Shown here: positions 33,927 to 57,335 of the stretch, piece after piece
How the letters are laid out: every line of letters begins with the position of its first letter
How positions within the stretch are numbered: the stretch's first letter is position 1
Assembly: GCA_050010575.1 (NCBI GenBank)
Contig: JBEKKU010000001.1
Location: forward strand, 1-57,490
DNA: 57,490 bases
Direction of reading: 5' to 3'
Source: Thermacetogeniaceae bacterium
Lineage (GTDB): Bacteria; Bacillota; DSM-12270; Thermacetogeniales; Thermacetogeniaceae
The notes under the pieces: generated by a model
The model's input: only the letters and a program-made list of their open reading frames with translations
What the model was told of the DNA's origin: nothing
The model's database searches: none
Program-made: the position numbers and the translations under genes

Positions 33927-33966
33927 TTTGATACCTCCCCCGCACCTGATGGTTCCAGGCACCGGT

Positions 33967-35304: not shown

Positions 35305-35317
35305 TCCGTCTGTGCTT

Positions 35318-36736: not shown

Positions 36737-36770
36737 CTATTTACCCTCCATGCCGATTCCATCGATGTAT

Positions 36771-36941: not shown

Positions 36942-36982
36942 ACGTTAACCTCCCAGCCAAGCTTAGCCTAGGGGCTAGGTCA

Positions 36983-37258: not shown

Positions 37259-37558
37259 GTTTCTTTTCCCTCCTTTGCGATTTTGATCGCAGATTCGGCC
37301 TGTCCTGCTCAGTCAGTAGAAACACAACTTCTCCCTCGTCAATTCTTTGGCGATCTGGTCGTTCATCGTGAGTTGTCTCACCCTGTCCATGTACGACCTC
37401 TTCGACCCCCTGTCCCGGTCATCCAGTTGCTCTGTCGGCATCTACGATTGTTGAGACCTGCTTATACTCAATGATTCCGCCTGGCCGTCCGAAAGAACCG
37501 TTCCCACATGCACGTTTCATAGCAATACCCTGTTCATGTTCAGAATAAGGAACACTTC

Positions 37559-40459: not shown

Positions 40460-41136
40460 TGTGCCCCCACTCCCTGCAGGCTTAGATTTCCCTGTAAACT
40501 GAATATTGGATTGAAGACTATTGAGATATTGGGCCTGCCAGTATCTTTTAGTGTCAGCGTCGCCATGCTCAGGCCGGGATGATCGGGGTTTGTCGTGGTA
40601 ATGGTAAAGATGGGAGGCGTGCTCCCCGCAGTGGTGACATTGTTCAATAACGTCGTCCACTGGGCAGGGGTAGAGGTGGTGAATACCCCAGAGGCATTGG
40701 GTTGAACAATACCCCGTTGCAAAGCGTAGTAATTTTGCAGCGCCAACTGCTGCAGCCTAAAATGCACCTGCACCGGCGCAGAATCAGAAGCTGCGATTAT
40801 TTCGTAGAAAATGACCTCATATCCGGCATTCGCGCCTGTCGTGGTCACATTTATGGCCTTTGCGTAGGACGTATTTGATGCCAGCGAGTAATACTGCGCC
40901 TGTTTGATGTCAGTCTCCATTGTATTCATAGCAGTTTGGGCCTGGCGCTGCAGTTGTTCCGCTATCATCCCGTCGGCCCAGCTTCTATAGGCAAAGCCAT
41001 ATAAATGGCACACTGTATAGATGATCATGCTGAGGATCGCCATCGCTACCAGCATCTCGAGCAGGGTCATCCCCTGCTGGCATGCCCTCTCGGTGATCGC
41101 AGCCGTCCCATCACTGTTCATGCTTTTTCCCTTCAT
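40456..41136 (-). CDS. prepilin-type minor pilin (PilW-like)
   Basis: 226 aa with class III signal ...CQQG/MTLLEMLVAMAILSMII. Confidence 0.8.
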   Translation of the reverse strand: MKGKSMNSDGTAAITERACQQGMTLLEMLVAMAILSMIIYTVCHLYGFAYRSWADGMIAEQLQRQAQTAMNTMETDIKQAQYYSLASNTSYAKAINVTTTGANAGYEVIFYEIIAASDSAPVQVHFRLQQLALQNYYALQRGIVQPNASGVFTTSTPAQWTTLLNNVTTAGSTPPIFTITTTNPDHPGLSMATLTLKDTGRPNISIVFNPIFSLQGNLSLQGVGAQ

Positions 41137-41172
41137 CTCGTCTCTCCAAATATAATGCTATGTGATCGCAAG

Positions 41173-42711: not shown

Positions 42712-43347
42712 TATTTCGTCATGCAAAGCAGTCAATTCGCATAATTCTACCATATTTTTGCATTTTAGCTCCTTTGCATAACATATTATTGCTTATTAAT
42801 TTAATAATAACTATTATTTAGCCAATATTTTAAACAAGTTGAAGAGAATTAGGGTTTATTATGTTTTGGTGATATCGTTGTTCTGTCATACTGGGTATAT
42901 AGTCCTAGTCTTATTATCCTATATCTGAATAGATTCCCCATCTAAATTGTAACTTAATTCTTTCTATATAATACTTTAATTCCATCTCTATGTCTACATT
43001 TTATAATATCAACTATCATATTGGCATGCTTTCCAGATCATCGGCAGGAAATCCACCGACAAATATAGAATACCGCACCGCATCTCAAAGGAATATCACT
43101 ATACATCATTGTGTACTCTAAGTGGAGAACTTTTTTACTGTCAAGTTATAACAATTGTACTTCTATTGATTATGATTTTTAGCATAGACCTGCCTGCCTC
43201 GCCTCTGAGCAGATTGCCATAGTGGCCCTGGTACAAGGTGATGACCACCGGGCCAAACCTTAAGGCAAGGCCCTTCTGGATAACCGCTAGGATGAGATTC
43301 TTCAACGCCAGCAGGGAAAACGGAGCCAGGGCGCAGCTGATCCGCTA

Positions 43348-43854
43348 TCAGGATCCGTGGATCTCCCAGCTTTCCGGCGGCCGGTCACTGACCCGGACCC
43401 GGCCGGTGATCGCCGCCACGATCACATACAGTTGCTGACGGCTGTTAGCCTTGTTCGTCAGGGTGATGGTGCCGCCGTTTGCGCTTCCTTCAAGGCATGG
43501 TATAGTTAGCATTTTTTTAGGAAAGTTGGATTCCAGGGTGAGGGAGGCGGGCAGATGGACCATGGGAGTATCGCTTATGTAAACTGCCGTTTTTTTGATC
43601 AGATAGGCGTTGCCGGGATCCTGATAGAATTGGATGCCATATGGGCTATTCTCGGCAAAAGCGCGCTGTTGAGTAGTCCGGATCTCCTGCGCCAGCCGGT
43701 CGCTGGCCAACCGCAGGTTTACCGTCGCCGTCAACCGGGTGAGGCTCAGGACTGTGCCAGCCGTCAGTCCAGCCAGTATCAATATGGCGATCATGACCTC
43801 GATCATGGTAAAGCCGGTCTCTCTACCTGGCGCCTGAATGATCTTTATTTTCAT
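43348..43854 (-). CDS. prepilin-type minor pilin (GspH/FimT-like)
   Basis: MKIKIIQAPGRETG/FTMIEVMIAILILAG. The ATG at 43854 lies just after the pilD stop; the longer ORF-track start overlaps pilD. Confidence 0.82.
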   Translation of the reverse strand: MKIKIIQAPGRETGFTMIEVMIAILILAGLTAGTVLSLTRLTATVNLRLASDRLAQEIRTTQQRAFAENSPYGIQFYQDPGNAYLIKKTAVYISDTPMVHLPASLTLESNFPKKMLTIPCLEGSANGGTITLTNKANSRQQLYVIVAAITGRVRVSDRPPESWEIHGS

Positions 43855-43859
43855 CGATT

Positions 43860-44663
43860 TCACCCCAGAGGGCCGAATAGTAGTTTGAGGATCTGGCCGC
43901 CCCACAACAAGGCGACCATAGTGCCCAGGGCGATGAAGGGGCCAAAGGGGATCGAGTCCTTGCGCCCTTTGATTCCGGTCAGGAGCAGAATAATTGCCAG
44001 CAGTCCCCCGGCGCAGGCCCCGGCAAACAGGCCCACCAAGCCTTGTGGCCACCCCAGGAAGAGCCCGGTCACCAGTGCCAGTTTGACATCACCCATTCCC
44101 ATCCCCCCCCGGCTGATCAGGGCAACCAGGAACAGGAACCCGGAGCAGGAGACGGCGCCCAGCAGTGCCGACCAGAAGCTGGTATCCCGGACGATGAACC
44201 CGGCAGCGATGCCGAAGATGACCCCCGTCAGCACCAGGCAGTCGGGAATGAGGAAATGTTCCAGGTCGATGAAGGAGACGGCCACCAGCAGGGCGGCCAG
44301 GAACAGATACTTGAGCAGCGCTGTGACCAGCCCGAAATGAAGATACAGGATCAGGAACAGGGCGGCAGTCAGGAACTCCACCAGCGGGTAGCGCCAGGAG
44401 ATCGGCGCCCGGCAGGACCGGCATCGGCCTCTGAGCAGCAGGTAGCTCACCAGGGGAATGAGGTCATACCAGGCAATCTCCCGGTGGCAGTCAGGGCAGT
44501 GCGACCGCCTGACCACGATCGATTCCCCCCTGGGCAGCCGGTAGATGACCACATTGAGGAAACTGCCGATACAGAGGCCGAACACGGTTACGACCGCTAT
44601 TTCGAAGGCGGCAAATTGGGAGTCGCCAGCCAGGACACCGGCAGAGACTGCATTGATCATCAT
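43860..44663 (-). CDS. pilD: prepilin peptidase / N-methyltransferase (A24)
   Basis: 267 aa with CPDCHREI...CRSCRAPI Cys motifs, catalytic Asp contexts (FIDLEHFLIPD, GMGMGDVKL) and multiple TM segments. Confidence 0.93.
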   Translation of the reverse strand: MMINAVSAGVLAGDSQFAAFEIAVVTVFGLCIGSFLNVVIYRLPRGESIVVRRSHCPDCHREIAWYDLIPLVSYLLLRGRCRSCRAPISWRYPLVEFLTAALFLILYLHFGLVTALLKYLFLAALLVAVSFIDLEHFLIPDCLVLTGVIFGIAAGFIVRDTSFWSALLGAVSCSGFLFLVALISRGGMGMGDVKLALVTGLFLGWPQGLVGLFAGACAGGLLAIILLLTGIKGRKDSIPFGPFIALGTMVALLWGGQILKLLFGPLG

Positions 44664-45508
44664 TTCACCGCAGTTTTGTGGCTGACCTGCTTACTAGGGC
44701 GCAGGCTGGAGCTAGATGATCGGGTTATCTTGCGCTGTATGCGCAAGGGCTGCTGCAAGGAGCCAGCGTTTAACGGCTGCAAGGGCACAGGCTGAGGCAA
44801 GATCTCCAAATACGGCAGTGACGAAGCACCGCTGGCTGGCTGGAATATGTTGCCGCGGCCAATCGCCCATTTTCTGATCTCCTCCAGGCTGATCTTCTCC
44901 TGTGGTGTATTCGCCATGTAAATGATGACGCTCATGGAGATCGTGACGTCGCCAGGGTTATCTAGGCCCTGGATATAGGAGTTGGGGGGGGCAGCGCTCG
45001 GGCTATTGGTAGTCTGTCCGCTGCTGACCTGCGCGCCCTGAATTTTAAACATCCTGATCTCGCTCAGATTGGGCAGGCGTTCGATATCGGCACAGAAGTT
45101 GATGATGTTGGGATAATCGCCCTGCGCCGTGATGTTCAGAGGCAATTCCTGGTAGTTTGGCTTGACGGTAATATCTCCGGGCGTGATCGACATGATCTGC
45201 ACCTGGGAGGTGGCGGCCTGCAATCCCAGCAGGATCACGTTGGAGCCGTCCCGCATCTCGGTGTCGAACAGCTGGCCATACTTGTCCAGATCCAGGTTTG
45301 CCTGATTATATTGGTCCTTGACCATTTTTAGGGAATTAGCGACGCTGCGGGCGGTATTCACCTTGGCCCGCAGGTCATTCAATTCTGCGCTCATCTGCAG
45401 GTAGACCTGCACCTTCGGCACCACCACAAAATAGACTACCGCCACTAGGAGCGCCAGGGCTACGGGAATAACAACCAGCAACTGCTGCTTTTTATCCATG
45501 CAACTCAT
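44660..45508 (-). CDS. pilO: type IV pilus assembly protein PilO-like
   Basis: 282 aa with N-terminal TM, coiled coil and a PilO-like ferredoxin-type domain (LPLNITAQGDYPNIINFCADIERLPNL). ATGA overlap with pilD. Confidence 0.8.
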   Translation of the reverse strand: MSCMDKKQQLLVVIPVALALLVAVVYFVVVPKVQVYLQMSAELNDLRAKVNTARSVANSLKMVKDQYNQANLDLDKYGQLFDTEMRDGSNVILLGLQAATSQVQIMSITPGDITVKPNYQELPLNITAQGDYPNIINFCADIERLPNLSEIRMFKIQGAQVSSGQTTNSPSAAPPNSYIQGLDNPGDVTISMSVIIYMANTPQEKISLEEIRKWAIGRGNIFQPASGASSLPYLEILPQPVPLQPLNAGSLQQPLRIQRKITRSSSSSLRPSKQVSHKTAVK

Positions 45509-46133
45509 CCTTTACATAGGCAGTGATTTCAAAACTGTTGCCCCCGGTCTGGGCGGTGATCGTCTTGATCACCACATCCTTGAAGTAGGGGAGTTGCCTC
45601 ATGTTCTGAACAAAGATGCCTACTGAAGGCACACTGAGTGCCATCCCCTTGACTGTGACTGTGTCGGGAAAGGGCACCGGCTCAGTATTATTCTGGGCAA
45701 TGGAGGCGGCAGGGACCTTTCCGGCAGGCGTGGCCGTGCCCGTTTTGGGCTGGCTGGCGTTGGTCAGATCCAACTCCACCAGCCAGAGATCGGTCGGGGC
45801 GATGTCATCAAGTTCATAGAGCAGGCTGGACCATGTAACCTGCCGGTTCAGCAGAACCTTATAGCCAGTCACGATGCCCTGCATCATTTTGGTCTGGCCC
45901 TGCAAGGTCTGCACGTAGTTAACTGATGGTTGCAGGCTGGCCAGCTGGCTGGTTTCGGAGGCGATCTCCTGGCGCATATCGAAGTAATTCACCACAAAAA
46001 AGATAGCGGCCCCCAGCACCAGCATCGTCAAGGTGACACTGACCGCCAGAATCAATAGGCGGCGCATATCGATCAATTCTTCGCGCTGCAGATTTGGTGG
46101 CAGCAGGTTGACTTTGTACATCGGTTCGCTCAT
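45492..46133 (-). CDS. pilN: type IV pilus assembly protein PilN-like
   Basis: 213 aa with N-terminal YKVNLLPPNLQRE plus a TM segment, typical of PilN. Confidence 0.82.
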   Translation of the reverse strand: MSEPMYKVNLLPPNLQREELIDMRRLLILAVSVTLTMLVLGAAIFFVVNYFDMRQEIASETSQLASLQPSVNYVQTLQGQTKMMQGIVTGYKVLLNRQVTWSSLLYELDDIAPTDLWLVELDLTNASQPKTGTATPAGKVPAASIAQNNTEPVPFPDTVTVKGMALSVPSVGIFVQNMRQLPYFKDVVIKTITAQTGGNSFEITAYVKDELHG

Positions 46134-47206
46134 GATCCGATACCTCTCATCGCCAACCCGAGCGCCACGGCATAGCTGGGGTCGAAATTGGGAACTGGCA
46201 GCATGGCATCAGTAACGCCGATAGTCGTCTCCAGCTCGAGCATCTCATGGCAATAATCAGCAATCCCCTTAAGCTTGCTGGTTCCCCCGCTGAGGATGAT
46301 CCGCTCCACGTTCAGCCCCTCCTGGGCGGAACAGAAACTCAGAGACCGGCGCATCTCCTTCACAAACTCGGTCAGCCCCTCCCGTAAGACATCCCCGATC
46401 CGCCGCAGCGGACCGCCCTGCATGTAGATATCACTGTTCCTGGAGACGCTGGACTCCCCCTTATACTGCTGGGCCTGGGCCCTTTCCAGGCCTAGAGCCT
46501 CCACTATCGCTCCAGTCAGGGCCTCGCCACCCACGGGCAACTGCCGGATAAACCTGATCGTTCCGTTTCTGACTACCACAAACCGGGAGGTCTTGGCGCC
46601 AAAATCGACCAGGGCCACCGTACCGGTAATATCTCGGCCGAAGACGCGCCACAGGGCGAAGGCCTGCAGGTCGAAGGCAGTCACCGTGAGCCCCGCCCGG
46701 GAGAAGATGCTGTAGTACTGGTAGATCAAAGTTGTAGGCACCGCCATCAGCAACACGCTCTGGCCTTCAGGCTGGCTTCCGGCAAAGTCCGGGGATGCTC
46801 CTTTGCCAGCCAGTTCTTTGGCCGGCGTGGCCAACGTGGTGTGCCTGATGATCATCTGTTCGGTGGAGATCGGCAAATTCTTGCTGATCTCGATCTCTAC
46901 GGAGGCGGCCAATTCCTTATCGCTCATCACCGGAAACCGCACGCTGCGAGTGATCACCTTCTCGCCGCCGATACAGGAGACGACCTCATTTAAGGGAGAG
47001 CCGGCCTGGCTCAAAGCGAAAACCAGATCCTCCTCATTGAAACTATCCGTCCACACCCCCGCAGGGCTGGGAAAGGTGTGCTGCGTCATGACCTCCACCT
47101 GATCGTCATGGATCTTGATCTCGACCATCTTGATGGAGAAGGCCCCGACATCCACTCCCACAAAATGAGTTTTGCGGGGAATCAAATTTTGCAACAGTTT
47201 GATCAT
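46130..47206 (-). CDS. pilM: type IV pilus assembly ATPase-fold protein PilM
   Basis: 358 aa with an actin/FtsA-like fold (VGVDVGAFSIKMVEI...ILSGGTSKLKG). Confidence 0.9.
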   Translation of the reverse strand: MIKLLQNLIPRKTHFVGVDVGAFSIKMVEIKIHDDQVEVMTQHTFPSPAGVWTDSFNEEDLVFALSQAGSPLNEVVSCIGGEKVITRSVRFPVMSDKELAASVEIEISKNLPISTEQMIIRHTTLATPAKELAGKGASPDFAGSQPEGQSVLLMAVPTTLIYQYYSIFSRAGLTVTAFDLQAFALWRVFGRDITGTVALVDFGAKTSRFVVVRNGTIRFIRQLPVGGEALTGAIVEALGLERAQAQQYKGESSVSRNSDIYMQGGPLRRIGDVLREGLTEFVKEMRRSLSFCSAQEGLNVERIILSGGTSKLKGIADYCHEMLELETTIGVTDAMLPVPNFDPSYAVALGLAMRGIGS

Positions 47207-47228
47207 CTGTTTTCCTCTCCGCCTCAGT

Positions 47229-48143
47229 CTATTTGCAATCTGCCCTGTCGGTCGTCAGCATGATTGTCTGCATTCCCGAATCCTGGAGAAAATAGACCGT
47301 CACTATAATCGTTTTTACTCCGGCACCGCCGACAATGGCCGCAATCTCGTAGTCGTACTGATATAGCCGGTAGAGCGAGGTCTCATCAGGCGCCACCTCC
47401 CAGTCCCGGTCCAGCCAGGCCGTGGCCTGTGGGGCGGATGTCCCGTTATAATCCAGCACTCGCCTCACCTGACCGGAACCGGCGCCGCCGGCTATGCTCA
47501 GATAATATCCGTTATAGAGATCGTCCACGATGTTATCCCCTGTGGCTAGGACCAGTGTCCGGGCCTGACCGCCGCGGGCGATACCCATTCCCTGAAATCC
47601 ACTGTCGCAGATCAGGTAGGTTGATGCGCAATCCGGAAATTGCCCGTCAGCCCAGGGCGTTCGGGGATCGATGGCCGCCACCTGGGAGTCGCTGCCATAA
47701 GAGATGATATGCCGTATCTGGCCCCTGCCACTTCCTGCAGTGATCGCTATCAGCTTGTCTTTAAGGTCTATATCCCCGGTGCCGCCCGCCAGACTAATGG
47801 TGGTATCTGTACTGCCACGAGGATTGCCGACCATGTAATAAGGAATGCCCTTGACCGCCTCCTGCAGTTGTTGAGCGGTATATAGCGCCGCTATTTTGAT
47901 CCTGGCCTCACCGGCCAGCCTGGACCCCTGCACAAACATGCCCAACAGGGGAACCGCCAACGTCCCGACCATGATCAGCGCCACCATGACTTCCAAGAGG
48001 CTCATTCCGCCCTGACTATCGGTCGACCTGTTTCTGCCATCCAGTCTATAGTCACTTTTTATACAGATGGCAAGAATATTTAGAATATTACACTTTATCC
48101 ATATATTTATTGTTTTACCTGCACTAGGATTAAGATTCGGCAC
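47229..48143 (-). CDS. prepilin-like minor pilin with an anomalous N-terminus
   Basis: Hydrophobic pilin helix GG/MSLLEVMVALIMVGTLAV. The only in-frame canonical starts are GTG 48143 (46-residue AT-rich leader) or the +1 Met itself at 48005 (no leader). Confidence 0.65.
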   Translation of the reverse strand: MPNLNPSAGKTINIWIKCNILNILAICIKSDYRLDGRNRSTDSQGGMSLLEVMVALIMVGTLAVPLLGMFVQGSRLAGEARIKIAALYTAQQLQEAVKGIPYYMVGNPRGSTDTTISLAGGTGDIDLKDKLIAITAGSGRGQIRHIISYGSDSQVAAIDPRTPWADGQFPDCASTYLICDSGFQGMGIARGGQARTLVLATGDNIVDDLYNGYYLSIAGGAGSGQVRRVLDYNGTSAPQATAWLDRDWEVAPDETSLYRLYQYDYEIAAIVGGAGVKTIIVTVYFLQDSGMQTIMLTTDRADCK

Positions 48144-48213
48144 GTTTTTATCATATCCTTCAATAAAATGATATAAATGATAATTTTAGATACAAATCTA
48201 CCTCCAGCATAGG

Positions 48214-48669
48214 TTACTGCCAGGAGATCATGGTAACAGTGCTGGGATCACCACCGGGAACCACAGGTTTGTTTAGCTTGAACTGTGCTGTCACCGTGTA
48301 GAAACTGAAATAACCGGGGATAGATCCGGCACGATCCTTGGGCCCCGGATATTCACCAGTGCAGTTTACCGTGTACACGTCCTGCACAGGCCCGCTGTAA
48401 CTGGCAGCCGATACGATCCCTCCGGCGTAAGATTCATTTACGAGGCTGGCAACATTGTTCCTGCCGCCAGCGATCATGGCGATCGCCTGGTTGATGCCCG
48501 CCTCGGCAATATAGTAGGCCTGTTTCTGCCTGGTGGCCAACAGGGCGTTGCGCTGCACGGAGATACCGGCCAACAGCACGGCCTCCCCCAGTAATAGCAG
48601 CAGCATCATCACAAACAAGGTCAGGACCATGACCTGTCCGCTCTTCCGATCATCTTCAAATAATGCCAT
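48214..48669 (-). CDS. PilX-N-domain pilus assembly protein
   Basis: MALFEDDRKSGQVMVLTLFVMMLLLLLGEAVLL is PilX_N-like. The ATG at 48669 follows AAAGGGGG. Confidence 0.75.
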   Translation of the reverse strand: MALFEDDRKSGQVMVLTLFVMMLLLLLGEAVLLAGISVQRNALLATRQKQAYYIAEAGINQAIAMIAGGRNNVASLVNESYAGGIVSAASYSGPVQDVYTVNCTGEYPGPKDRAGSIPGYFSFYTVTAQFKLNKPVVPGGDPSTVTMISWQ

Positions 48670-48712
48670 ATGGCCCCCTTTATCGATGACCCGGTTTATT
48701 CGCCACCCAAGC

Positions 48713-49177
48713 TCACTGCACGCCGACATATACTTTGGTGTTCAGGACGCTGGTCGAGTCTGGGTGCGGTTTCTTTATGCCCCCGCTGACACTGATAGCG
48801 ACAACGTTGCTGTTGTCCAAGATAAAGGAGAGATCGCTAATATTGCTGGCCACCGGCAGCCATTTAGATTCAAACTTCTGCTCGATCTGCCGATTCACGC
48901 TATCCAGGCGGTAACCACCGGCCTTGCCCTGTCCATCAGTAAAGGTGATCTGGTGTCCGTTGGCAGCAATGAGCACCTTCCCAGCCTGGGCTCGGCGTAT
49001 GCCGTTGCTCATCTTATCCATGGCAATGCGCAGGCTCTCCTGGACATCGACCTGCTGAGACACCATGGCATAACTGGTATACCCCCTGACCAGCATGACG
49101 GATAGCATCATTAATACAAATCCATAGATGGTCAGCGCCACGATCACTTCAACCAGCGAAAAACCACTCTTTTTCAT
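48713..49177 (-). CDS. prepilin-type minor pilin (GspJ/PilW-like)
   Basis: MKKSG/FSLVEVIVALTIYGFVL class III signal; 154 aa. Confidence 0.85.
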   Translation of the reverse strand: MKKSGFSLVEVIVALTIYGFVLMMLSVMLVRGYTSYAMVSQQVDVQESLRIAMDKMSNGIRRAQAGKVLIAANGHQITFTDGQGKAGGYRLDSVNRQIEQKFESKWLPVASNISDLSFILDNSNVVAISVSGGIKKPHPDSTSVLNTKVYVGVQ

Positions 49178-49393
49178 TGCCCGCTCGCCGCCATTTCTTC
49201 AAAATACAATACCAGTATCTTCTATTATTGCATATACTGTCTTGTATTTACTATAGTCTGCATATTTTTACATATATTATTATTTTCGGCTGTCTTTCTT
49301 CCATATAACATCCTCGGCTCCATACGCCCGATTTCATCGGGCAGTGATTATCAACCATGTGCTGTCTATGATCAGCCAACGTCCAAATAGTTA

Positions 49394-49422
49394 TTGACAG
49401 GAGTAGTGCTAGATACTACCAT
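49394..49422 (+). promoter_or_regulatory. candidate sigma-A promoter for the glycan island in the divergent AT-rich region
   Basis: TTGACA-N17-TACCAT, ~35 nt upstream of the 49455 ATG. Confidence 0.3.
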
Positions 49423-49454
49423 AATTATTAAATAATCGACAATCTAGGAGCAAT

Positions 49455-50960
49455 ATGATTAATCCTGAAGGTAAACAGGTGATGCCTTGTCAGGTTGTAA
49501 ACAACAGACTGCCGGAAATTAGAACAGTACCATCCCTCTATACCATCCCGGCACTGGTCGTGACCGACGTGCTGGCATTGGGCGCCGCCCTGTGGTTGGC
49601 CTGGGAGGTCAGGCTCGGACTGTTGCCCATGTTCGGTTCACTGTATAACCTGGAGGTCACCGTCGATTTCTACCACCACCTGCTCTGGGTACTGGTGGTG
49701 GTACTCAGCTACCTGGCCATCGACGGCCTGTACACCTCCCGCCTGCCCTTCTGGCGGGAAACCGGCCGGGCGTTGAAGGTAATAACCCTTTCCTTCCTAT
49801 TGATTCTGGCCTCGATCTCCCTGGGCAAGATGAGCGGCGAGTTTTCACGCAGCGTGCTGGTGCTCTGCTGTCTGTTCGCCCTGTTGTTGTTGCCAGTCGG
49901 CCGCTGGGCTATGAAATCCCTGCTCTGGCAACGGGGATGGTGGGACCAGCCGGTACTGGTGTTGGGCGCCGGCAAGACCGGCGCACTGGTGGCACAGGCG
50001 TTGCTCAGGGACCGTTACCTGGGCTACCAGATCCGGGGGTTTTTAGACGACGAACCCGCCAAGCAAAAATCCGGCTTTAAAGTGAACGGCGTCTGTTTTC
50101 CGGTACTGGGCGGCTTTGCAGATTACGAGCAAGTTATGGCCGAGACCGGCGTCAGCGACCTGATCGTGGCTGCTCCCGGCATGGCTTCAACAAAGCTGGT
50201 CGATCTGGTCAACTCTATTCAGCGTATTGCCTCATCCGTCACGGTGGTGCCGGATCTGTTCGGTCTGCCAGTGGAGGGAGTGAAGGCCGATTATTTCTTC
50301 GATGAGCAGATGCTCACCTTCAGACTGGGCAACAACCTGGCCAACCCGGTCAATAGAATTATCAAGCGCTGCTTCGATTTTATCATCGGTCTGTTGATCT
50401 CCATCATCCTGCTCCCGCTACTGGCTGCGATCGCCCTGGCCGTCAAGCTGGATTCCCCCGGCCCGGTCCTGTTCGCCCACCGCCGGGTCGGACGCAACGG
50501 CAGGAGATTCAACTGTTACAAGTTCCGCAGCATGGCAATTAACGCCCAAGAGGTATTATCTGATCTTTTGGAGAATAACCAAGAAGCACAACAGGAATGG
50601 CAATACCATTACAAAATAAAAAACGACCCCCGTATTACGAGAGTCGGCAAATTCCTGCGCAGTTCCAGCCTGGACGAACTGCCGCAACTGCTCAACGTGC
50701 TGAGGGGCGAGATGAGCCTGGTCGGCCCCAGGCCGATCACCGATCAGGAGATCCCTTACTTCGGCAACCACATCGAGAATTACTACCTGGTACGCCCCGG
50801 TATCACCGGCCTCTGGCAGGTCAGCGGCCGCAGCGAGATGGACTATGAACACCGGGTCAGCCTGGAATCCTGGTACGTCCGCAACTGGTCTCTATGGACT
50901 GATATCAGCTTGCTGATCCGGACATTAACTGTATTAATTTCAAAATGTGGTGCTTATTAA
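49455..50960 (+). CDS. polyprenyl-phosphate glycosylphosphotransferase (WbaP/EpsL-type initiating sugar transferase)
   Basis: 501 aa with N-terminal TM bundle, a central Rossmann-like domain and the C-terminal bacterial sugar transferase domain (KFRSM...[21 protein letters not shown]...[14 protein letters not shown]). Confidence 0.92.
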
Positions 50961-51014
50961 TAACTTGACTGCTAAGGAACGGGAATTTATCCTCTGTTTT
51001 ACCGAGGAAAAGTA

Positions 51015-51845
51015 ATGAAATTTTCACTTATTCTTTGTACAATTAATAGATATGACGAATTGAATAATTTTTTGTTTTCTTTAAATACACAAATATATAA
51101 CAATTTTGAGTTAATTATTGTTGATCAAAATAGTGATATGCATGTTAAATCAATTATTGCTAAATATAATTATGATATTATATATCTAAAATCTGAACCT
51201 GGTCTTTCTAAGGCCAGAAATGTTGCTCTTAAATATGTATCTGGCGATATTATAGCCTTTCCAGATGATGACTGTGAATATCCGAAAGAGTTATTGAAAT
51301 CAGTGAATGACTTTTTTGTTAAATATTATGAATATGATGCTATTTCTGGACGTTCAGTTGATGCTCGTGGTCGAACTAGCGTATCCCATTTTGATATAGC
51401 TCCTGGTATCATTACAATTGACAATGTCTTTAAAAGAGCTAACTCAATTACAATATTTCTTAAGAACAAATTAGTAGAATCTACAGGGTATTTTGATGAA
51501 CAATTAGGACTAGGAGCAAAATCTCCTTTTTTAGCTTCAGAGGAAATTGATTATCTTATACGGGCCATTAAGTACGGATATAAAATATATTTTGATCCCA
51601 GCATAATTATCTTCCACAATGAACCCGTCAAAGAATATTCTGAGATAATTATTCTTCGCGGATACTTCTATGGAGCAGGCTATGGCCGAGTTGCAAGAAA
51701 GCATATGCTTTCTTCAAAACATGTTTTTCTAATGTTTATTAGGCCCTTAGGCGGATTTTTATTATCGTTGTTCTTTCTTAGATGGAAAAAAGCTAGATAT
51801 CATTTTTTTGTTCTAAAAGGAAGGCTTATGGGCTGGTTTGCATAG
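51015..51845 (+). CDS. family 2 glycosyltransferase
   Basis: Contains FSLILCTINRYDELNNFLFSL...ELIIVDQNSD and the FPDDDCEYP DxD region. Very AT-rich. Confidence 0.88.
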   Translation: MKFSLILCTINRYDELNNFLFSLNTQIYNNFELIIVDQNSDMHVKSIIAKYNYDIIYLKSEPGLSKARNVALKYVSGDIIAFPDDDCEYPKELLKSVNDFFVKYYEYDAISGRSVDARGRTSVSHFDIAPGIITIDNVFKRANSITIFLKNKLVESTGYFDEQLGLGAKSPFLASEEIDYLIRAIKYGYKIYFDPSIIIFHNEPVKEYSEIIILRGYFYGAGYGRVARKHMLSSKHVFLMFIRPLGGFLLSLFFLRWKKARYHFFVLKGRLMGWFA

Positions 51846-51879
51846 ATTGTAACTATTAAATGGAGGCAGATGGTCGTAA

Positions 51880-52986
51880 TTGAAACGCATACTCTATATA
51901 ACTGCTAGAGCAGACTACGGGGGAGGCCCCGAACATCTTTATACCCTAGCAAAATCTTTAAAGGATGAATATTCCTTATATATAGCATGCCCCCATGACA
52001 TTCCATATTGGGATGAATATGTGGCATTATTATCAGAATCAAGAATATGTGAAATCCCCCATAGAATATTTTCGTTTTTAAACTTAATTAAACTCATATT
52101 ATTTATACGTACAAATAAGATTATTATTATCCATTCTCATGGCAAAGGGGCAGGCATTTATTCCAGATTACTTAAATTATGTCTTCCCTATTTGAAAGTA
52201 ATTCATACTTTCCATGGTATCTATTATAAAGATAAAATAATATTTTCAAAGCGTCTGCATCTTTATGTTGAACAATTATTTTCTCACTTTACAGATTTTT
52301 TTATCTGCGTATCGAAGGGCGAGATGGCCGACGCTGTTTCATTGAAAATTTGTGCTGCCAATCGAACCATAGTTATTTATAATGGCATAGAAATACCAAC
52401 CAGGCAAGACACTATTGATCTTGATCCTAGTTATCTGGATATAAGTAAAGACCATTTTATCGTTCTTCATATTTCGAGATTCGACTATTTTAAAAATGTT
52501 AGCCTATTAATCGATATAGCCGAACAAGTCGGTTCATGCGATTCTAGTATAATATTTCTTCTAATCGGTGATGGTCCTGAAAAATCAACACTGGAGAAAT
52601 TAGCTTCTTCTAAAAGAATAGCGAATATCTTTTTTCTCGGGTTTCAGTCCCGAGCCTCCAGGTTCTTTAGTATCTCCAGTCTCTACCTGTCGACTTCCCG
52701 CAAGGAAGGCTTGCCACTCAGCTTGATTGAATCCCTAAGCATGGGTAATCCTATAGTGGCGACTGATATTCCAGGTAATGATGAAATAGTTAAGCATGGA
52801 TATAATGGCTTCCTGTTCCCCTTAAACAATCCAAAAGCTGCAGGCGATTATATTTTGGAACTAAAGAATGACCCATTAAAATTAAAATCACTAAGTGAGG
52901 GCGCCATTAATTCTTTTAACGCAATATTTTGCCTGAAAACCATGTTAAATGAGTATAGAAAAATATACCAGGGAGTAGATGTATGA
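51880..52986 (+). CDS. family 4 (GT-B, group 1) glycosyltransferase
   Basis: 368 aa with TTG start. The C-terminal TSRKEGLPLSLIESLSMGNPIVATDIPGNDEIV contains the EX7E-type GT4 motif. Confidence 0.88.
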   Translation: MKRILYITARADYGGGPEHLYTLAKSLKDEYSLYIACPHDIPYWDEYVALLSESRICEIPHRIFSFLNLIKLILFIRTNKIIIIHSHGKGAGIYSRLLKLCLPYLKVIHTFHGIYYKDKIIFSKRLHLYVEQLFSHFTDFFICVSKGEMADAVSLKICAANRTIVIYNGIEIPTRQDTIDLDPSYLDISKDHFIVLHISRFDYFKNVSLLIDIAEQVGSCDSSIIFLLIGDGPEKSTLEKLASSKRIANIFFLGFQSRASRFFSISSLYLSTSRKEGLPLSLIESLSMGNPIVATDIPGNDEIVKHGYNGFLFPLNNPKAAGDYILELKNDPLKLKSLSEGAINSFNAIFCLKTMLNEYRKIYQGVDV

Positions 52987-54110
52987 AAATTGCTCTCGTT
53001 CAAGATTGGGTGGTAACGCTGGGAGGGTCGGAGCGCTGCCTGCAAGCATTTCATGAACTCTGGCCAGCAGCTCCTCTCTATACTCTTGTCAGTGCAAAAG
53101 AAAGTTTGGGCAAGTTGGGATTTACCGAAACGATGGTGCATACATCATTCCTACAAAGATTTCCGCGCGCTATTAAATGGTACCGCAACTACTTACTCCT
53201 ATATCCAATAACTATAGAACAATTTGATCTCTCCGATTATGAAATTATTTTATCAAGTAGCCATGCTGTGGCTAAAGGTGTACTTACCCGCTCAGACCAG
53301 CTTCACGTCTGTTATTGCCATACGCCAATTCGCTATGCCTGGGATCTTTATCATCAATATTTGCAGGAGCATTCACTTGATAAAGGACTAAAATCTTTTA
53401 TTGCCCGTATGATCTTGCATTACATTCGCATATGGGATGTTTCTACTACCCCTCGCGTTGATTATTTTATCGCCAATTCCCACTATACAGCCAAACGTAT
53501 TTGGAGAGCGTATAGAAGAAAAGCGGTGGTTATCTATCCCCCTGTGGATGTAGATAAATTCACCCCTATTCAAAAAAAAGAAAACTATTTTATTTTTGTA
53601 TCCCGCTTAGTGCCCTATAAACATGCTGATTTGGTTGTCTCCGCTTTTACTAAAATGGGATTACCTTTATTAGTTATCGGTGATGGCCCGCATTTAAAAG
53701 AGTATCGCTCTCTTGCTGGTAAGAATGTTTCCTTCCTCGGATATCAGCCGGACGAAAAGTTAGCTGACTTGATGGCCAGGGCCAGGGCTTTGATATTTGC
53801 CGCTGAGGAGGACTTCGGCATTGTGCCTGTGGAGGCACAAGCCTGTGGTACACCAGTCATTGCATATGGAAAAGGTGGCATTATAGATACTGTAATTCCA
53901 GCTAATGGGAGCAATTGGGATCAGGCAACCGGAGTCTTTTTCTTTGAACAATCTGTTGATGTAATTATTTCAGCAGTTGGTGAATTCTTGAAATGTGAGG
54001 GTAATTTCAATATCAATATCCTCAGGCAAAATGCTGAACATTATGGAAGAGAAAGATTTAAAAAACAAATATCAGATTATGTCACAGATAAATGGCATAA
54101 ACACATTTAA
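52983..54110 (+). CDS. family 4 (GT-B, group 1) glycosyltransferase
   Basis: 375 aa with KIALVQDWVVTLGGSERCL N-terminus and the AAEEDFGIVPVEAQACGTPVIAYGKGG motif. 4-nt overlap with the upstream GT. Confidence 0.88.
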   Translation: MKIALVQDWVVTLGGSERCLQAFHELWPAAPLYTLVSAKESLGKLGFTETMVHTSFLQRFPRAIKWYRNYLLLYPITIEQFDLSDYEIILSSSHAVAKGVLTRSDQLHVCYCHTPIRYAWDLYHQYLQEHSLDKGLKSFIARMILHYIRIWDVSTTPRVDYFIANSHYTAKRIWRAYRRKAVVIYPPVDVDKFTPIQKKENYFIFVSRLVPYKHADLVVSAFTKMGLPLLVIGDGPHLKEYRSLAGKNVSFLGYQPDEKLADLMARARALIFAAEEDFGIVPVEAQACGTPVIAYGKGGIIDTVIPANGSNWDQATGVFFFEQSVDVIISAVGEFLKCEGNFNINILRQNAEHYGRERFKKQISDYVTDKWHKHI

Positions 54111-54132
54111 AGCACGAATAAGGAGCTTATTG

Positions 54133-55386
54133 ATGAACATTTCATTTGGCAATTTGAAGCTATGGTATGAGCGGCAATTAGCAGAGGGCACTTTTAATAT
54201 ACGTCATTTAATTCTCTGGTTTATGGTTGCTATCTTTCCTTTGATTGTGATCCCGCATAATTATTCGATAAAGTTTCTTATGGGAATAGCTTCTCCTAAC
54301 TATTACTATCTACCTAGATATATAATTTTAGGTATTATTGCTATCATTGCTTTGTTTATCTTATTAAGAGATAGAACGCAGATCAACCACCCAGCCTTTA
54401 TTCCCTTATTCTTCTTCATTATATTCTCGACAATCTCTGCTTTTCTCGCCCCTATACAGATGACCGCCTGGATAGGCAGCCCTTTTCGTTATACTGGCCT
54501 AACAACCTATTATTTCTGTATTATTCTTTTTCTTTTAGCATATAAAAATAATCATACAGAAAAACTAATTTATAGTCTAATAATTACAGCAGCAATAGTA
54601 TCTATATTGTCATTATTACAATACTTTGGACTGAATCTTGTTCCACATGATAAGTATTTACAATTAAGTACTGCATATAGTTTTGGAACGATGCCTCACC
54701 CAAACTTTTTAGGGACATATATGGCCTTTATATTACCGGCGGCAATTATCTTATACCTGCGTTCTAAAATGTTTTTTAATCTTCTTCTTGCATCATTAAT
54801 ATATACCGGTCTGCTGGTCAGTTTATGCAGGGGCACATGGATAGCATCGCTGATTGGTTTATTGATTATTACATGGTATGTTTGGCATAAGCCAGAGATG
54901 AAAAAATCTTATTGGTTGCTCTTAGGGGCTTTCGTGATTATAACACTGGCGCTGATGCCGGCGGAAAACTGGGCTCTATTGGCCAGGGTATCTTCTTTAA
55001 AAGATAGTTCTGGCTTAAATTTAAGCGACGCCGCCGGTTCCTATCGGATGTATATCTGGCGGGGAGCCTTTCATCTTTTTCTATTGTATTGGCCCTTTGG
55101 TATCGGCCCCGATCATCTTATCTATGCGCATCTGGTCACTCCTGCTCACGAAATAGCAGATAAAGCGCATAACATCTATCTAGAGATGGGTCTAACCATG
55201 GGTATTTTCACATTGTTATCTTATCTTGCCTTTATGTGCTTCTTTTTTAGAAAATGGAAAACTGAAATCAGTTTTATATTGTTAACGATGATCTCTGTAT
55301 ATTTAATACAGGGATTTACCAATATCGACGTGGTACCGATTATGCCCCTATTTTGGATTATATTAGGCTTTGCTTTAATAGAATAA
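54133..55386 (+). CDS. O-antigen ligase/Wzy_C-domain membrane protein (polymerase, ligase or O-oligosaccharyltransferase)
   Basis: About 12 TM segments with the Wzy_C signature region SLCRGTWIASLIGLLI ... AHNIYLEMGLTMGIFTL. The ATG at 54133 follows AGGAG; the ORF-track start at 53995 overlaps the previous gene. Confidence 0.85.
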   Translation: MNISFGNLKLWYERQLAEGTFNIRHLILWFMVAIFPLIVIPHNYSIKFLMGIASPNYYYLPRYIILGIIAIIALFILLRDRTQINHPAFIPLFFFIIFSTISAFLAPIQMTAWIGSPFRYTGLTTYYFCIILFLLAYKNNHTEKLIYSLIITAAIVSILSLLQYFGLNLVPHDKYLQLSTAYSFGTMPHPNFLGTYMAFILPAAIILYLRSKMFFNLLLASLIYTGLLVSLCRGTWIASLIGLLIITWYVWHKPEMKKSYWLLLGAFVIITLALMPAENWALLARVSSLKDSSGLNLSDAAGSYRMYIWRGAFHLFLLYWPFGIGPDHLIYAHLVTPAHEIADKAHNIYLEMGLTMGIFTLLSYLAFMCFFFRKWKTEISFILLTMISVYLIQGFTNIDVVPIMPLFWIILGFALIE

Positions 55387-55395
55387 TGAACTAGA

Positions 55396-55445
55396 AATAT
55401 AAAAGTACAGCGATCTCATTAATGAGATCGCTGTACTTTTATATT
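55396..55445. terminator. bidirectional intrinsic terminator shared by the Wzy_C gene (+) and pilA (-)
   Basis: Perfect 25-nt arms AATATAAAAGTACAGCGATCTCATT/AATGAGATCGCTGTACTTTTATATT, with an A-tract on one side and a T-tract on the other, on both strands. Confidence 0.85.
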
Positions 55446-55459
55446 ATTATCCTATTTTA

Positions 55460-55921
55460 TTATGGTGCATCTGGTATAGTTGCCGTTGTTTCACTTGGGC
55501 CTGATTTCCCAGCAAGACCAGTACCTACTACGTAATTAGAACCATCTAGTGAAGTTATAGTATTAATTTCATACCCTGAATTAGTACCATCTGGTTTGTA
55601 TTGATACTTTCTTGCTGATCCTGCTGTTGTTACAGCAGCGTTACCAACCAATTCTGTGCTTAGACCTGCTGCGGTCAGACTGGCATCATCACCTGCCGGG
55701 TAGGCATTGCTACCCGCGTTAGCCTGTGCATAGTATGAATCAAGCGCGGCCTGCATGGTAGTGATATCAGCTGTGGCTTTGGTAATCTTTGCCCTGCCGA
55801 TGTAGCCGATATAGAATCTGATACCGCCAGCGATCAACACGGCGATGATGATTAGTACTACCATCATTTCCACCAGAGTGAAACCTTTTTCGTTACGGAC
55901 ATACTTTTTTAGATCGATCAT
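55460..55921 (-). CDS. pilA: major type IV pilin
   Basis: 153 aa with class III signal MIDLKKYVRNEKG/FTLVEMMVVLIIIAVLIAGG. It has its own strong promoter and terminator. Confidence 0.9.
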   Translation of the reverse strand: MIDLKKYVRNEKGFTLVEMMVVLIIIAVLIAGGIRFYIGYIGRAKITKATADITTMQAALDSYYAQANAGSNAYPAGDDASLTAAGLSTELVGNAAVTTAGSARKYQYKPDGTNSGYEINTITSLDGSNYVVGTGLAGKSGPSETTATIPDAP

Positions 55922-56011
55922 TGTTTTTCACCCCCTCTCCCTCAAGAATGATCCCTGCCATTGTCTTACAGATATATCGGCATAATTAAAAATAAATTAA
56001 ATGCTATGAAA

Positions 56012-56087: not shown

Positions 56088-57335
56088 CTAGGGCGTAGGG
56101 ACTCCAGACCCAGCCGACATCGCCCCCGACAGGCCGAACAGCGGCATGTAGATGGAGATGGCGATGAAGCCGATAATCAGTCCCACCCCAGCGATCATCA
56201 GCGGCTCGATGGTGCTGGACAGGCTGGCAACCATCGCCTCCACCTCATCCTCGTAGAAGATGGCCAGCTTGTCCAGCAGGGTGTCCAGGGAGCCGGATTC
56301 CTCTCCGATGGAGATCATGCTGACCGCCATCGGCGGGAAGAAGTTGCTCCTGGCCAGTATCGGCGACATCCGGTCGCCCTCCTTGATGTTGCTTCTGGCC
56401 TCGGCGATATTGTCTGCGGCCACAGTATTGCCGACGATCTCCTCAACCGTCTCCAGCGCCCGCAGCAGAGGAATACCACTTTTCAGCAGTGTCGACAGGG
56501 TGCGGGCGAACCTGGCCACCGCTGTCTTTCTGGTCATGGAGCCCACGATCGGCAATTTAAGGATGATCCGGTCAAATGCCCGGCGGCCCTGTTTGCTAGC
56601 CAATAGTTGCGAGATCCCGACGGGAAGTACGATGAATAGCAGGGGCAGGATGATAAACCAGTAATGGATCAGCACATTGCTCAGCGTTAGCATGATTTGG
56701 GTAGGCAGCGGGAGCGTGGCCCCGGCCTGCTTGAAGATGTCGACAAAAATCGGCACCACGAAGATCAGCAGGGCGATGACGGCCACCAAAGCCATGATTC
56801 CTATCAGCATCGGGTAGGTCATCGCAGACTTGATCTTGGACTGCAGAGCGTGCTCCCGCTCGAAGGTCACGGCCAGGCGCTCCATGCACTGGTCCAGGGT
56901 GCCACTGAGTTCGCCGGCTGCGAGCATACTGACGAATATATCGGGAAACTGCTCCCGGTATCTCCTGAAGGCATCGCTGAGTCCGGTGCCTTGCTCGATC
57001 TCTTTGGCCACGCTCTCGAGGATCTTCTGCAATCTCACGCCTTCTGTCTGCCTGGCCAGGATGTGCAGACACTGCAGGATCGGTATACCCGCCTGATTCA
57101 TGGTGGCAAACTGCCGGCAGAAGATGGCCAGCGACCGGGCTCCGATCTTTCTCTTGAACAGTTTGTCGAGGTCAATGGTGGGCAGACTCCACTGTTGGTT
57201 GATGTTGACCACAAACAGATTGCGCGACCGCAGCAATGTGATCACTGCCGAGGTGCTATTAGCCTGCACGTTGCCGGTGATGATCTGGCCGGACAGGTTC
57301 CTGGCTTTGTAGCTGAAAGACTGAGACTGAGGCAT
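56088..57335 (-). CDS. pilC: type IV pilus platform protein PilC (GspF family)
   Basis: 415 aa with two T2SSF repeats and three TM regions. Confidence 0.93.
   Translation of the reverse strand: MPQSQSFSYKARNLSGQIITGNVQANSTSAVITLLRSRNLFVVNINQQWSLPTIDLDKLFKRKIGARSLAIFCRQFATMNQAGIPILQCLHILARQTEGVRLQKILESVAKEIEQGTGLSDAFRRYREQFPDIFVSMLAAGELSGTLDQCMERLAVTFEREHALQSKIKSAMTYPMLIGIMALVAVIALLIFVVPIFVDIFKQAGATLPLPTQIMLTLSNVLIHYWFIILPLLFIVLPVGISQLLASKQGRRAFDRIILKLPIVGSMTRKTAVARFARTLSTLLKSGIPLLRALETVEEIVGNTVAADNIAEARSNIKEGDRMSPILARSNFFPPMAVSMISIGEESGSLDTLLDKLAIFYEDEVEAMVASLSSTIEPLMIAGVGLIIGFIAISIYMPLFGLSGAMSAGSGVPTP

Follow-up and report, generated by a model that had tools for sequence, protein, structure and literature searches.

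Why should a run of glycan-assembly genes lie inside a type IV pilus locus of a spore-forming Firmicute, and what might it have to do with the pilus? The question is raised by DNA of a Thermacetogeniaceae bacterium (GenBank assembly GCA_050010575.1, contig JBEKKU010000001.1, positions 1 to 57,490 of the forward strand), and by the window we denote the whole of this stretch of 57,490 nucleotides. In it, a run of five plus-strand genes sits between the minor-pilin/pilMNO operon and the gene for the major pilin, pilA, and codes for a polyprenyl-phosphate hexose-1-phosphate transferase (PGT), a GT2-family glycosyltransferase, two GT4-family glycosyltransferases (GT4a and GT4b) and a polytopic membrane protein of the Wzy_C family (Table 1). 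An initial annotation had read these genes as a candidate system for O-glycosylation of the pilin. The comparisons reported below point the same way, with amendments: at a probability of roughly 0.6, the locus can be regarded as a pilin O-oligosaccharyltransferase system of a new, Firmicute family.

The pilA/Wzy_C pair and the module around it

The case is built on the company that the Wzy_C gene keeps. In a scan of one genome per species, 51 loci with relatives of the Wzy_C protein were recovered and annotated by tblastn with the window's proteins and by a search for prepilin motifs; 36 loci, the window included, have enough flanking sequence to be evaluated. (Labels such as L001, L003 and L004 denote loci from relatives' genomes; L054, L055 and L056 are identical to L004, L003 and L012, respectively.) In 23 of these 36, the distance from the Wzy_C gene to a pilin gene is at most 1 kb, and such pilin-adjacent members occupy nearly every major branch of a neighbour-joining tree. 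In the window and in L001, L004–L007, L011, L012, L033 and L048, pilA and the Wzy_C gene converge; in L021, L022, L026, L038, L039, L045, L047 and L049, whose carriers include Syntrophomonas, Syntrophomonadaceae and Heliorestis acidaminivorans, the Wzy_C gene follows pilA on the same strand in operons of the pilC-pilA-wzyC-pilD type, which is the classical pilA-tfpO order. A third arrangement places the Wzy_C gene between two unusually large pilin-like genes, coding for about 300 and about 520–540 amino acids (L031, L035, L036 and L040, at about 8900–12900 in each); it was observed in Desulforadius tongensis and related metagenome-assembled genomes (MAGs), one of them binned as Armatimonadota.

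Sampling centred on PilA approaches the same association from the other side. Among four cultured strains, a convergent Wzy_C gene directly follows pilA in three, namely Desulfofundulus thermocisternus, Thermacetogenium phaeum DSM 12270, whose Wzy_C protein is 49% identical to that of the window over its full length, and Desulfofundulus kuznetsovii DSM 6115. A metagenome scan with the PilA alignment gave mostly distant pseudopilins similar at the N-terminus only, and serves solely as a background control: among its 43 pilin or pseudopilin loci of at least 5 kb, a Wzy_C-family relative was found in none of the 41 unrelated loci, against both of the two close PilA relatives. Many genomes, among them those with L005–L007 and those of T. 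phaeum (L139) and D. kuznetsovii (L140), have a solitary Wzy_C gene in the pilus cluster and neither a PGT nor a glycosyltransferase gene in its vicinity. These solo genes fit a transferase that uses a glycan made elsewhere, following the TfpO paradigm, and not a polymerase. To judge from such neighbourhoods, the conserved core of the system is the pilA/Wzy_C pair, with the glycosyltransferase genes as a variable, lineage-specific add-on.

How the add-on varies can be seen from the boundaries of recombination. In a 200-bp profile, the G+C content (GC) is at host level (0.51–0.63) across the PGT gene, falls abruptly at about 50960 to 0.21–0.45 through the GT2 (0.21–0.36), GT4a, GT4b and Wzy_C genes and the terminator into the 3' part of pilA, and recovers inside pilA at about 55650–55700. 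The same module boundaries are given independently by blastn against L004, the closest genome found (a Peptococcaceae MAG). Identity is an unbroken 82.9% over 43334–50964, i.e., up to the PGT stop codon; there is no alignment over 50965–54183; the Wzy_C gene aligns at just 72%; the 5' end of pilA (55727–55940) aligns at 75% with its 3' part unalignable; and identity is again 82.9% from 56093. The portion of pilA within the module amounts to about half to two-thirds of the gene at its 3' end, and codes for the C-terminal globular domain and tail of the pilin.

Across relatives, the contents of the module differ widely. In L004, a single unrelated GT2 gene stands in place of the window's three glycosyltransferase genes; the cassette of L001 has two methyltransferase and two GT4 genes, that of L055 two GT4 genes, that of L056 a heparinase-like gene, a GumK-like gene and two GT4 genes, and that of L014 six glycosyltransferase genes. 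In the window's lineage, between one and six variable glycosyltransferase genes precede the Wzy_C gene. The PGT gene is resident at the locus in this lineage; the exchangeable module, on the evidence of these alignments, consists of the glycosyltransferase genes, the Wzy_C gene and the pilin C-terminal domain, replaced or diverged together. A single five-gene horizontal island, as the initial annotation had it, is ruled out because the PGT gene has host GC and host-level synteny, with 83% DNA identity to L004; the block exchanged is GT2-GT4-GT4-Wzy_C plus the 3' part of pilA, with the PGT gene excluded.

A canonical exopolysaccharide (EPS) locus unlinked to pili in close relatives had been named as the finding that would speak against a role in the pilus. 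What is seen instead is that the cassette stays inside the type IV pilus locus, and that wzx, wzz or an exporter is found by Pfam neither in the pilus loci of L001, L054 and L056 nor among the cassette open reading frames (ORFs) of L014. Likewise, the related cassettes examined, L055 included, with one to six glycosyltransferase genes each, are devoid of flippases and ABC exporters; L033 was covered solely by tblastn and blastn, with proteins of the window as queries. For the window itself, genes were called from the ORF map with Pfam and NCBIfam scans. The Pfam scans covered the larger ORFs within 178–32238 and nine ORFs of the pilus locus; outside them lie four ORFs at 32387–36736, assigned by synteny with L054/L055, the ORFs at 40456–41136 and 43348–47206 together with pilC, identified from their tblastn matches to relatives and from pilin motifs, and ORFs below 150 amino acids upstream of 40 kb. 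Among the ORFs so scanned there is no Wzx/MOP flippase, Wzz/PCP protein, tyrosine kinase, ABC exporter or LCP ligase, in keeping with the earlier description of a cassette that lacks a flippase, chain-length regulator, kinase and exporter.

The enzyme, its proposed acceptor and the rival explanations

The Wzy_C protein matches PF04932 (E=1e-13; 51.8 bits against a gathering threshold of 31.7) and no other domain: neither PglL_A (PF15864) nor Wzy_C_2 (PF11846) is found in it at E≤0.01, and no NCBIfam model matches it. In a Foldseek search of the PDB, its AlphaFold2 model (predicted local distance difference test score, pLDDT, 88.9; predicted template modelling score 0.90) has WaaL as the sole significant match (7tpg; E=3e-5, probability 1.00, template modelling scores 0.56/0.57, 15% identity), so that the predicted fold is WaaL-like. 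A structural search was needed to reach WaaL because the sequence profile reached no solved structure, the family profile giving only spurious pentatricopeptide repeat (PPR) matches against PDB sequences. Five residues, R233, R305, H346, N347 and G357 (H346-N347-x9-G357), are invariant in 32 homologues at 40–72% identity. The spacing of R233, R305 and H346 is similar to that of the Arg/Arg/His set of WaaL and PglL, in which two arginines and one histidine are needed for activity (R215, R288 and H338 in Escherichia coli WaaL; R298 and H349 in PglL; PMC3643930); TfpM, too, requires a histidine (PMC9829042). An hhalign alignment with E. coli K-12 WaaL puts R233 on R215, which, the alignment being statistically weak (probability 1.3), is a hint at most. 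The function of WaaL itself, i.e., O-antigen ligation, was considered and rejected: since the host is a sporulating Firmicute (SpoIIM, Spo0A, SpoIVB and the SpoIIIA operon), a lipid A-core acceptor is not expected, and no lipid A-core genes are in view.

The Wzy_C subfamily is sizeable, as a profile search of 1.84 billion representatives gave 837 clusters (at 50% identity) at E≤1e-30. Its members are distributed over the Desulfotomaculia/Peptococcaceae, Thermacetogenium, Syntrophomonadaceae, heliobacteria and Thermoanaerobacterales, with outliers in Armatimonadota and Lentisphaeria. In some homologues (P0070, P0075, P0097–P0120, P0004 and P0010), the Wzy_C body is extended at its N-terminus by MORN repeats (PF02493) or by a Prok-RING_1 domain (PF14446), and the MORN-fused forms belong to a sub-clade without adjacent pilins. 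In L017, a Pelotomaculum MAG, the Wzy_C gene (9992–11263, plus strand) is divergent from a gene for a secreted NHL-repeat protein (8652–9608, minus strand) with the C-terminus GPQAPPVTP; this protein, whose tail is like those of the pilins, may be a non-pilin substrate.

PilA, the proposed acceptor, has the attributes of a type IVa major pilin: a class III signal peptide (a leader of 13 amino acids cleaved after G13, i.e., G-1, with F+1 and E+5), a hydrophobic α1, a pilin fold and pilC as its neighbour. Its AlphaFold2 model combines an α1 helix of 54 residues with a β-sheet head (pLDDT 87), and has no significant Foldseek match in the PDB. The protein ends in ...GKSGPSETTATIPDAP; its C-terminal hallmark, G135-x2-G138-x-S140, is followed by the tail GPSETTATIPDAP. 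In the best 120 of 183 PilA homologues, the hallmark takes the form [YF]-V-x-G-x-G-x-x-G-x-S-(N/D/S/G)-(P/S/A)-P and is succeeded by 8–15 variable Ser/Thr/Pro-rich residues; in an alignment of 42 sequences, G138 is invariant and S140 is conserved in at least 90%. Nearly every close PilA relative found has a Wzy_C gene, and nearly every member of the PilA family has the G-x-S-x-P hallmark.

Several observations weigh against a pilin-modifying role, which is argued from gene neighbourhood in the first place. There is no adjacent pilin in 13 of the 36 evaluable loci, e.g., in Desulfofarcimen acetoxidans, where the gene is next to groESL. In L003/L055 (4876–13059), pilD is followed by PGT-GT4-GT4-Wzy_C and then by pilB, with pilA, pilC, pilMNO and the minor pilins absent; unless this MAG is misassembled, the glycan cassette has here outlived the pilin gene. 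In D. thermocisternus, the Wzy_C gene is a fragment of 141 codons (L138, 7581–8006), and the D. kuznetsovii DSM 6115 gene, as called, has 344 codons and lacks both ends (L140, 7488–8522), the pilin motif being kept in both strains; the gene thus seems to be decaying in part of the cultured strains. It follows from L003/L055, the truncated genes and the non-adjacent loci that the enzyme would be dispensable in some lineages and that some members may have other substrates. In the window, pilA and the transferase gene are not co-transcribed since they converge. As for the acceptor, the G-x-S-x-P motif lies inside a confidently modelled β-hairpin (pLDDT 90–95 in the AlphaFold2 model) and may be structural rather than a sequon. 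The C-terminal Ser/Thr acceptor rule of TfpO and TfpM does not hold for this pilin because its last residue is Pro (it ends ...TIPDAP, with the nearest Ser/Thr 6–14 residues from the end); pilins ending in Ser or Thr are present in the relatives L001, L012, L048, L022 and L038. In favour of a pilin acceptor, the Ser/Thr/Pro fraction of the last 20 residues is 0.34 in Wzy_C-adjacent pilins, against 0.21 in the rest of the protein and 0.26 in non-adjacent pilins (adjacent versus non-adjacent, one-sided Mann-Whitney p=0.014), a weak test because the controls are mostly minor pilins. The main unexplained gap is the flippase, none being encoded in the scanned ORFs of the window or in six related cassettes.

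Some of these observations are what other explanations would predict. The Wzy_C protein might serve a general, PglL-like O-glycosylation that modifies several surface or secreted proteins (S-layer proteins, adhesins and pilins) at low-complexity Ser/Thr/Pro/Ala regions, adjacency to pilA merely reflecting the pilin as the most abundant substrate. Such low-complexity regions are preferred by general O-oligosaccharyltransferases, and PilA tails resemble them; the family members without a pilin neighbour, the cassette kept without pilA in L003/L055 and the secreted neighbour with a pilin-like tail in L017 are also in its favour, and the O-oligosaccharyltransferases of Firmicute S-layers are themselves Wzy_C proteins (PMC2943079). 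We consider this explanation rather unlikely, given an enzyme that lacks PglL_A and Wzy_C_2 and has about 420 amino acids rather than 520–600, a pilin C-terminal domain that is exchanged along with it, and a tight linkage to the substrate gene, which characterises dedicated O-oligosaccharyltransferases and which, among the general ones, is "not widely observed" (PMC12645811).

An unlikely alternative is that the protein is the polymerase or ligase of a cell-envelope glycopolymer (a secondary cell-wall polymer, a teichuronic-acid-like polymer or EPS; Wzy/TuaE-like), whose presence here would reflect either a hot spot of recombination at the pilus locus or a requirement for the polymer at the site where pili traverse the wall. 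The Wzy_C domain is common to polymerases and ligases, which neither fold nor motif can tell apart; a PGT, glycosyltransferases and a Wzy_C protein are also the core of Wzy-dependent loci, a variable low-GC block is a feature of O-antigen and capsule loci, and the cassette persists in L003 without pilA. A polymerase, however, makes little sense as a solo gene in pilus clusters devoid of sugar genes; the adjacency is specific to the major pilin gene, in two gene orders and on deep branches; and Wzx, Wzz/PCP, a kinase, an LCP ligase and an exporter were not found in the scanned ORFs of the window or in six related cassettes. Still less can be said for a polysaccharide secreted by way of the pilus machine, as in the cyanobacterial hormogonium polysaccharide (Hps) system, which we regard as highly improbable: the NCBIfam matches that recall it (GT2 to HpsN/HpsE and PilA to the pseudopilin HpsC) are weak and sub-threshold, with 10–50 bits against cut-offs of 200–425, there is no gene set for polymerisation or export, and relatives' pilus loci have solo Wzy_C genes with no glycosyltransferase.

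If the locus is a pilin O-oligosaccharyltransferase system, as we prefer to read it, it could work as follows. The WbaP-type PGT would load hexose-1-phosphate on undecaprenyl phosphate at the cytoplasmic face of the membrane, and GT2, GT4a and GT4b would lengthen the lipid-linked hexose to a short oligosaccharide of about four sugars. A flippase encoded elsewhere would shift the lipid-linked glycan to the outer face, where the Wzy_C enzyme with its WaaL-like fold would move it en bloc to a Ser or Thr in the C-terminal region of PilA, the latter, as prepilin or pilin, being anchored in the membrane by its N-terminal helix and modified before assembly. The enzyme would then do in a monoderm Firmicute what TfpO/PilO and TfpM do in Proteobacteria. 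In evolutionary terms, the pilA/Wzy_C pair would have been conserved, a glycan-synthesis cassette would have been recruited upstream of the transferase in the window's lineage, and the glycosyltransferase genes, transferase and pilin C-terminal domain would have been exchanged together as a variable surface module, with a role that conceivably has to do with phages or surface variation.

Gene content of the locus and the window

The gene list and coordinates of the cassette, its AT-rich divergent upstream region and the terminator that it has in common with pilA, all given in the initial annotation, are borne out, the genes by the ORF map and the Pfam and NCBIfam scans (Table 1). The DNA of the divergent region is conserved with L004, falling within the unbroken blastn segment of 82.9% identity, and contains a promoter-like TTGACA-17-TACCAT on the plus strand (49394–49422). 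The PGT has a Bac_transf domain (PF02397, E=7e-66) as well as CoA_binding_3, and scores 494 bits against TIGR03022, the WbaP subfamily (cut-off 403); its homologues, 74–85% identical in amino acids by tblastn, are at the same position in L001, L003, L004 and L033. GT4a homologues (51–58% identical) hold their position in L001, L008 and L012, and GT4b, often paired with the Wzy_C gene among relatives, has homologues (61–74% identical) directly upstream of it in L001, L003, L008, L009, L012 and L014. From the PGT gene to the Wzy_C gene, the intergenic gaps are, in order, 54, 34, −4 and 22 nt. The GT2 and Wzy_C genes each have a Shine-Dalgarno sequence before the start codon; in the latter case, AAGGAG 7 nt before the ATG at 54133, together with homologue lengths of 417–430 amino acids, supports the start.

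The stop codons of the Wzy_C gene and pilA are 73 nt apart, and between them the terminator palindrome, bordered by A- and T-runs, begins 9 nt past the former and ends 14 nt short of the latter. Its folding energy is −37.1 kcal/mol (z=−10.8), with none of 200 shuffles folding as well; the same convergent gap in L004, L005, L006 and L139 is filled by unrelated GC-rich hairpins. A promoter-like TTGACA-17-TATATT with 11 of 12 matches (56040–56012) is available to pilA.

Table 1. Genes and other features of the pilus locus, in window coordinates
Feature	Position	Strand	Remarks
pilD	43860–44663	−	flank of the cassette
pilO, pilN, pilM	44660–47206	−	
Three minor pilin-like genes	47229–49177	−	
Divergent intergenic region	49178–49454		277 bp, GC about 36%; between minor-pilin operon (−) and glycan operon (+)
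PGT, polyprenyl-phosphate hexose-1-phosphate transferase	49455–50960	+	WbaP-type, large; 501 amino acids
Replaceable low-GC module	50961–55726		GT2, GT4a, GT4b, Wzy_C, terminator and 3' part of pilA; about 35% GC against about 58% for the host
GT2 glycosyltransferase	51015–51845	+	PF00535, E=2e-20; first gene of the low-GC block
GT4a glycosyltransferase	51880–52986	+	PF00534, E=1e-33; PF13439
GT4b glycosyltransferase	52983–54110	+	PF00534, E=1.5e-26; 4-nt overlap with GT4a
Wzy_C polytopic membrane protein	54133–55386	+	417 amino acids; candidate pilin O-oligosaccharyltransferase
Bidirectional intrinsic terminator	55396–55445		perfect 50-bp palindrome (arms 55396–55420 and 55421–55445); common to glycan operon and pilA
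pilA, major type IV pilin	55460–55921	−	153 amino acids; N_methyl, E=3e-9
pilC	56088–57335	−	directly upstream of pilA

The scanned ORFs elsewhere in the window are sporulation and housekeeping genes, coding for SpoIIM, Spo0A, SpoIVB, RecN, the SpoIIIA operon, EF-P and DXS, and it is from the sporulation genes that the host is taken to be a spore-forming Firmicute; rml or gal nucleotide-sugar genes, an S-layer gene and an ABC transporter are not among them. As there are no tRNA genes in the window, there is no tRNA-linked island. Rfam, run on the whole window, finds neither a riboswitch nor any other RNA in the neighbourhood of pilA and the cassette, its sole match being a full-length OLE (Ornate Large Extremophilic) RNA (RF01071, 475 bits) on the minus strand at 14943–15541. 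Its neighbours are an ispA-like polyprenyl synthetase gene (15618–16541), a gene for a membrane protein of 193 amino acids that is probably oapA (14311–14892), and dxs, the classical context of this known element.

The pilus locus has a second variable module of about 6.3 kb (37000–43333; GC 0.41–0.52) with no DNA similarity to L004. It codes for a protein of 1033 amino acids with three He_PIG Ig-like repeats and a Big_2 domain (37559–40660), a pilin-like protein of 226 amino acids (40456–41136) and an N_methyl pilin-like protein of 526 amino acids (41173–42753), where L004 has only a pilin of 150 amino acids; it may be an exchangeable tip-adhesin/minor-pilin set. Beside it are ORF-poor low-GC gaps of about 590 bp (42754–43347) and about 820 bp (36737–37558), with no Rfam family or tRNA detected in either. 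Tandem paralogues of the FolD-type methylene-tetrahydrofolate dehydrogenase/cyclohydrolase are encoded on the minus strand at 18054–18926 and 19000–19869.

Relation to known systems

Full-text literature searches returned pilin O-oligosaccharyltransferases only from Proteobacteria (TfpO, TfpM, PglL and PglS), which does not prove their absence from the literature on Firmicutes. In a 2019 review of monoderm type IV pili the string "glycos" does not occur, a 2025 review of glycosylation mentions neither glycosylation of monoderm type IV pilins nor a responsible enzyme, and the Wzy_C gene goes unmentioned in the papers describing the genomes of T. phaeum and Syntrophaceticus schinkii. The initial annotation had supposed such a system to be undescribed in a spore-forming Firmicute; for the genetic system this agrees with the literature searched, and for the phenomenon it does not, the major pilin GP25 of Ruminococcus albus being known biochemically as a "glycoprotein of 25 kDa" (PMC3796261). 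If our reading is correct, it may account for this old report and would add a fifth class of O-linking oligosaccharyltransferase. The odds appear even to us on a wider claim: that an unrecognised family of pilin-directed O-oligosaccharyltransferases in the type IV pilus loci of many Clostridia constitutes the first genetically defined glycosylation of monoderm pilins, that glycan genes, transferase and pilin C-terminal domain are swapped as one hypervariable module, plausibly under phage pressure, and that its acceptor rule (a sub-terminal site and a hexose-initiated glycan) is unlike those of TfpO, TfpM, PglL and PglS.

In Proteobacteria, O-glycosylation of pilins by Wzy_C enzymes affects phage resistance, immune evasion and the surface chemistry of the pilus, and the enzymes have been used for bioconjugate vaccines; if the present enzyme prefers, as it may, glycans that start with a hexose and an acceptor site short of the terminus, this would be of practical interest for glycoengineering. 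Many of the carriers of the family are syntrophic or sulfate-reducing anaerobes, for whose pili a part in cell-cell contact and electron transfer is under discussion, and a glycan coat, if present, would bear on such models of the pilus. The conserved pilA-Wzy_C pair is a testable candidate in the cultured T. phaeum, D. kuznetsovii, H. acidaminivorans and D. tongensis.

The family was compared with TfpO, TfpM, PglL and PglS by way of the published descriptions of these classes. The earlier comparison with TfpO/PilO and PglL holds for the Wzy_C-only architecture, the size of about 420 amino acids and the pilin adjacency, and fails for the PglL domains and for the C-terminal Ser/Thr acceptor; similarly, discrimination by profiles places the protein, as a Wzy_C domain alone, with TfpO and TfpM, the domains of PglL and PglS being absent. 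WaaL (7tpg), the sole significant structural match, has an Arg/Arg/His set to which the invariant R233, R305 and H346 may correspond, at 15% identity and with a lipid A-core acceptor that is not expected in the window's organism. PglL/PglO of Neisseria and PglS of Acinetobacter are of the same superfamily and modify pilins (PilE and ComP) among other proteins, at internal rather than terminal acceptor sites (PMC9829042, PMC3643930); the window's enzyme, in contrast, lacks PglL_A and Wzy_C_2, is 100–180 amino acids shorter and is tightly linked to its candidate substrate gene.

A precedent within the Firmicutes is offered by the slg clusters of Geobacillus stearothermophilus and Paenibacillus alvei, in which WsaP/WsfP, glycosyltransferases, Wzm/Wzt and WsaB/WsfB are combined (PMC2943079). 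These, too, pair a WbaP-homologous Gal-1-P transferase and cytoplasmic glycosyltransferases with a Wzy_C O-oligosaccharyltransferase acting on a surface protein (PMC2943079), whereas the scans of the window show no Wzm/Wzt or nucleotide-sugar genes, the linkage is to pilA and not to an S-layer gene, and the glycan would be short where that of slg is a long polymer.

The closest parallels are with the proteobacterial enzymes dedicated to pilins. TfpM of the Moraxellaceae is a Wzy_C-only protein of 420–440 amino acids with a conserved catalytic His, encoded next to a pilin-type substrate gene (PMC9829042), and tolerates Glc or Gal at the reducing end (PMC9829042); it differs in modifying a C-terminal Ser/Thr, in being proteobacterial and in having no linked glycan-synthesis cassette. 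The TfpO/PilO class, found in Pseudomonas aeruginosa strains with group I pilins (e.g., 1244) and in Acinetobacter, is likewise a Wzy_C-only membrane enzyme (about 420–470 amino acids) beside the major pilin gene, described as having Wzy_C without PglL_A or Wzy_C_2 in about 440–470 amino acids (PMC12645811, PMC9829042), so that the window's protein, with 417, is slightly short for TfpO and within the range of TfpM. As with TfpO, the Wzy_C gene is solo in many relatives and must there use a glycan made elsewhere, pilin allele and accessory gene travel as one variable cassette, and a short glycan is expected. Unlike TfpO, the window's Wzy_C gene converges on pilA instead of following it, and is the last gene of a dedicated operon of PGT and glycosyltransferases; its host is a monoderm spore-former with no lipopolysaccharide O-antigen to borrow, and its PilA is without a C-terminal Ser/Thr. 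With a WbaP-type initiator, the sugar at the reducing end should be a hexose; those documented for TfpO are 2-N-acetyl sugars (PMC9829042). What is familiar in this locus would be a Wzy_C transferase linked to a pilin; what appears to be new is the phylum, the separate sequence family, a self-contained glycan cassette that can be swapped, and an acceptor of different geometry.

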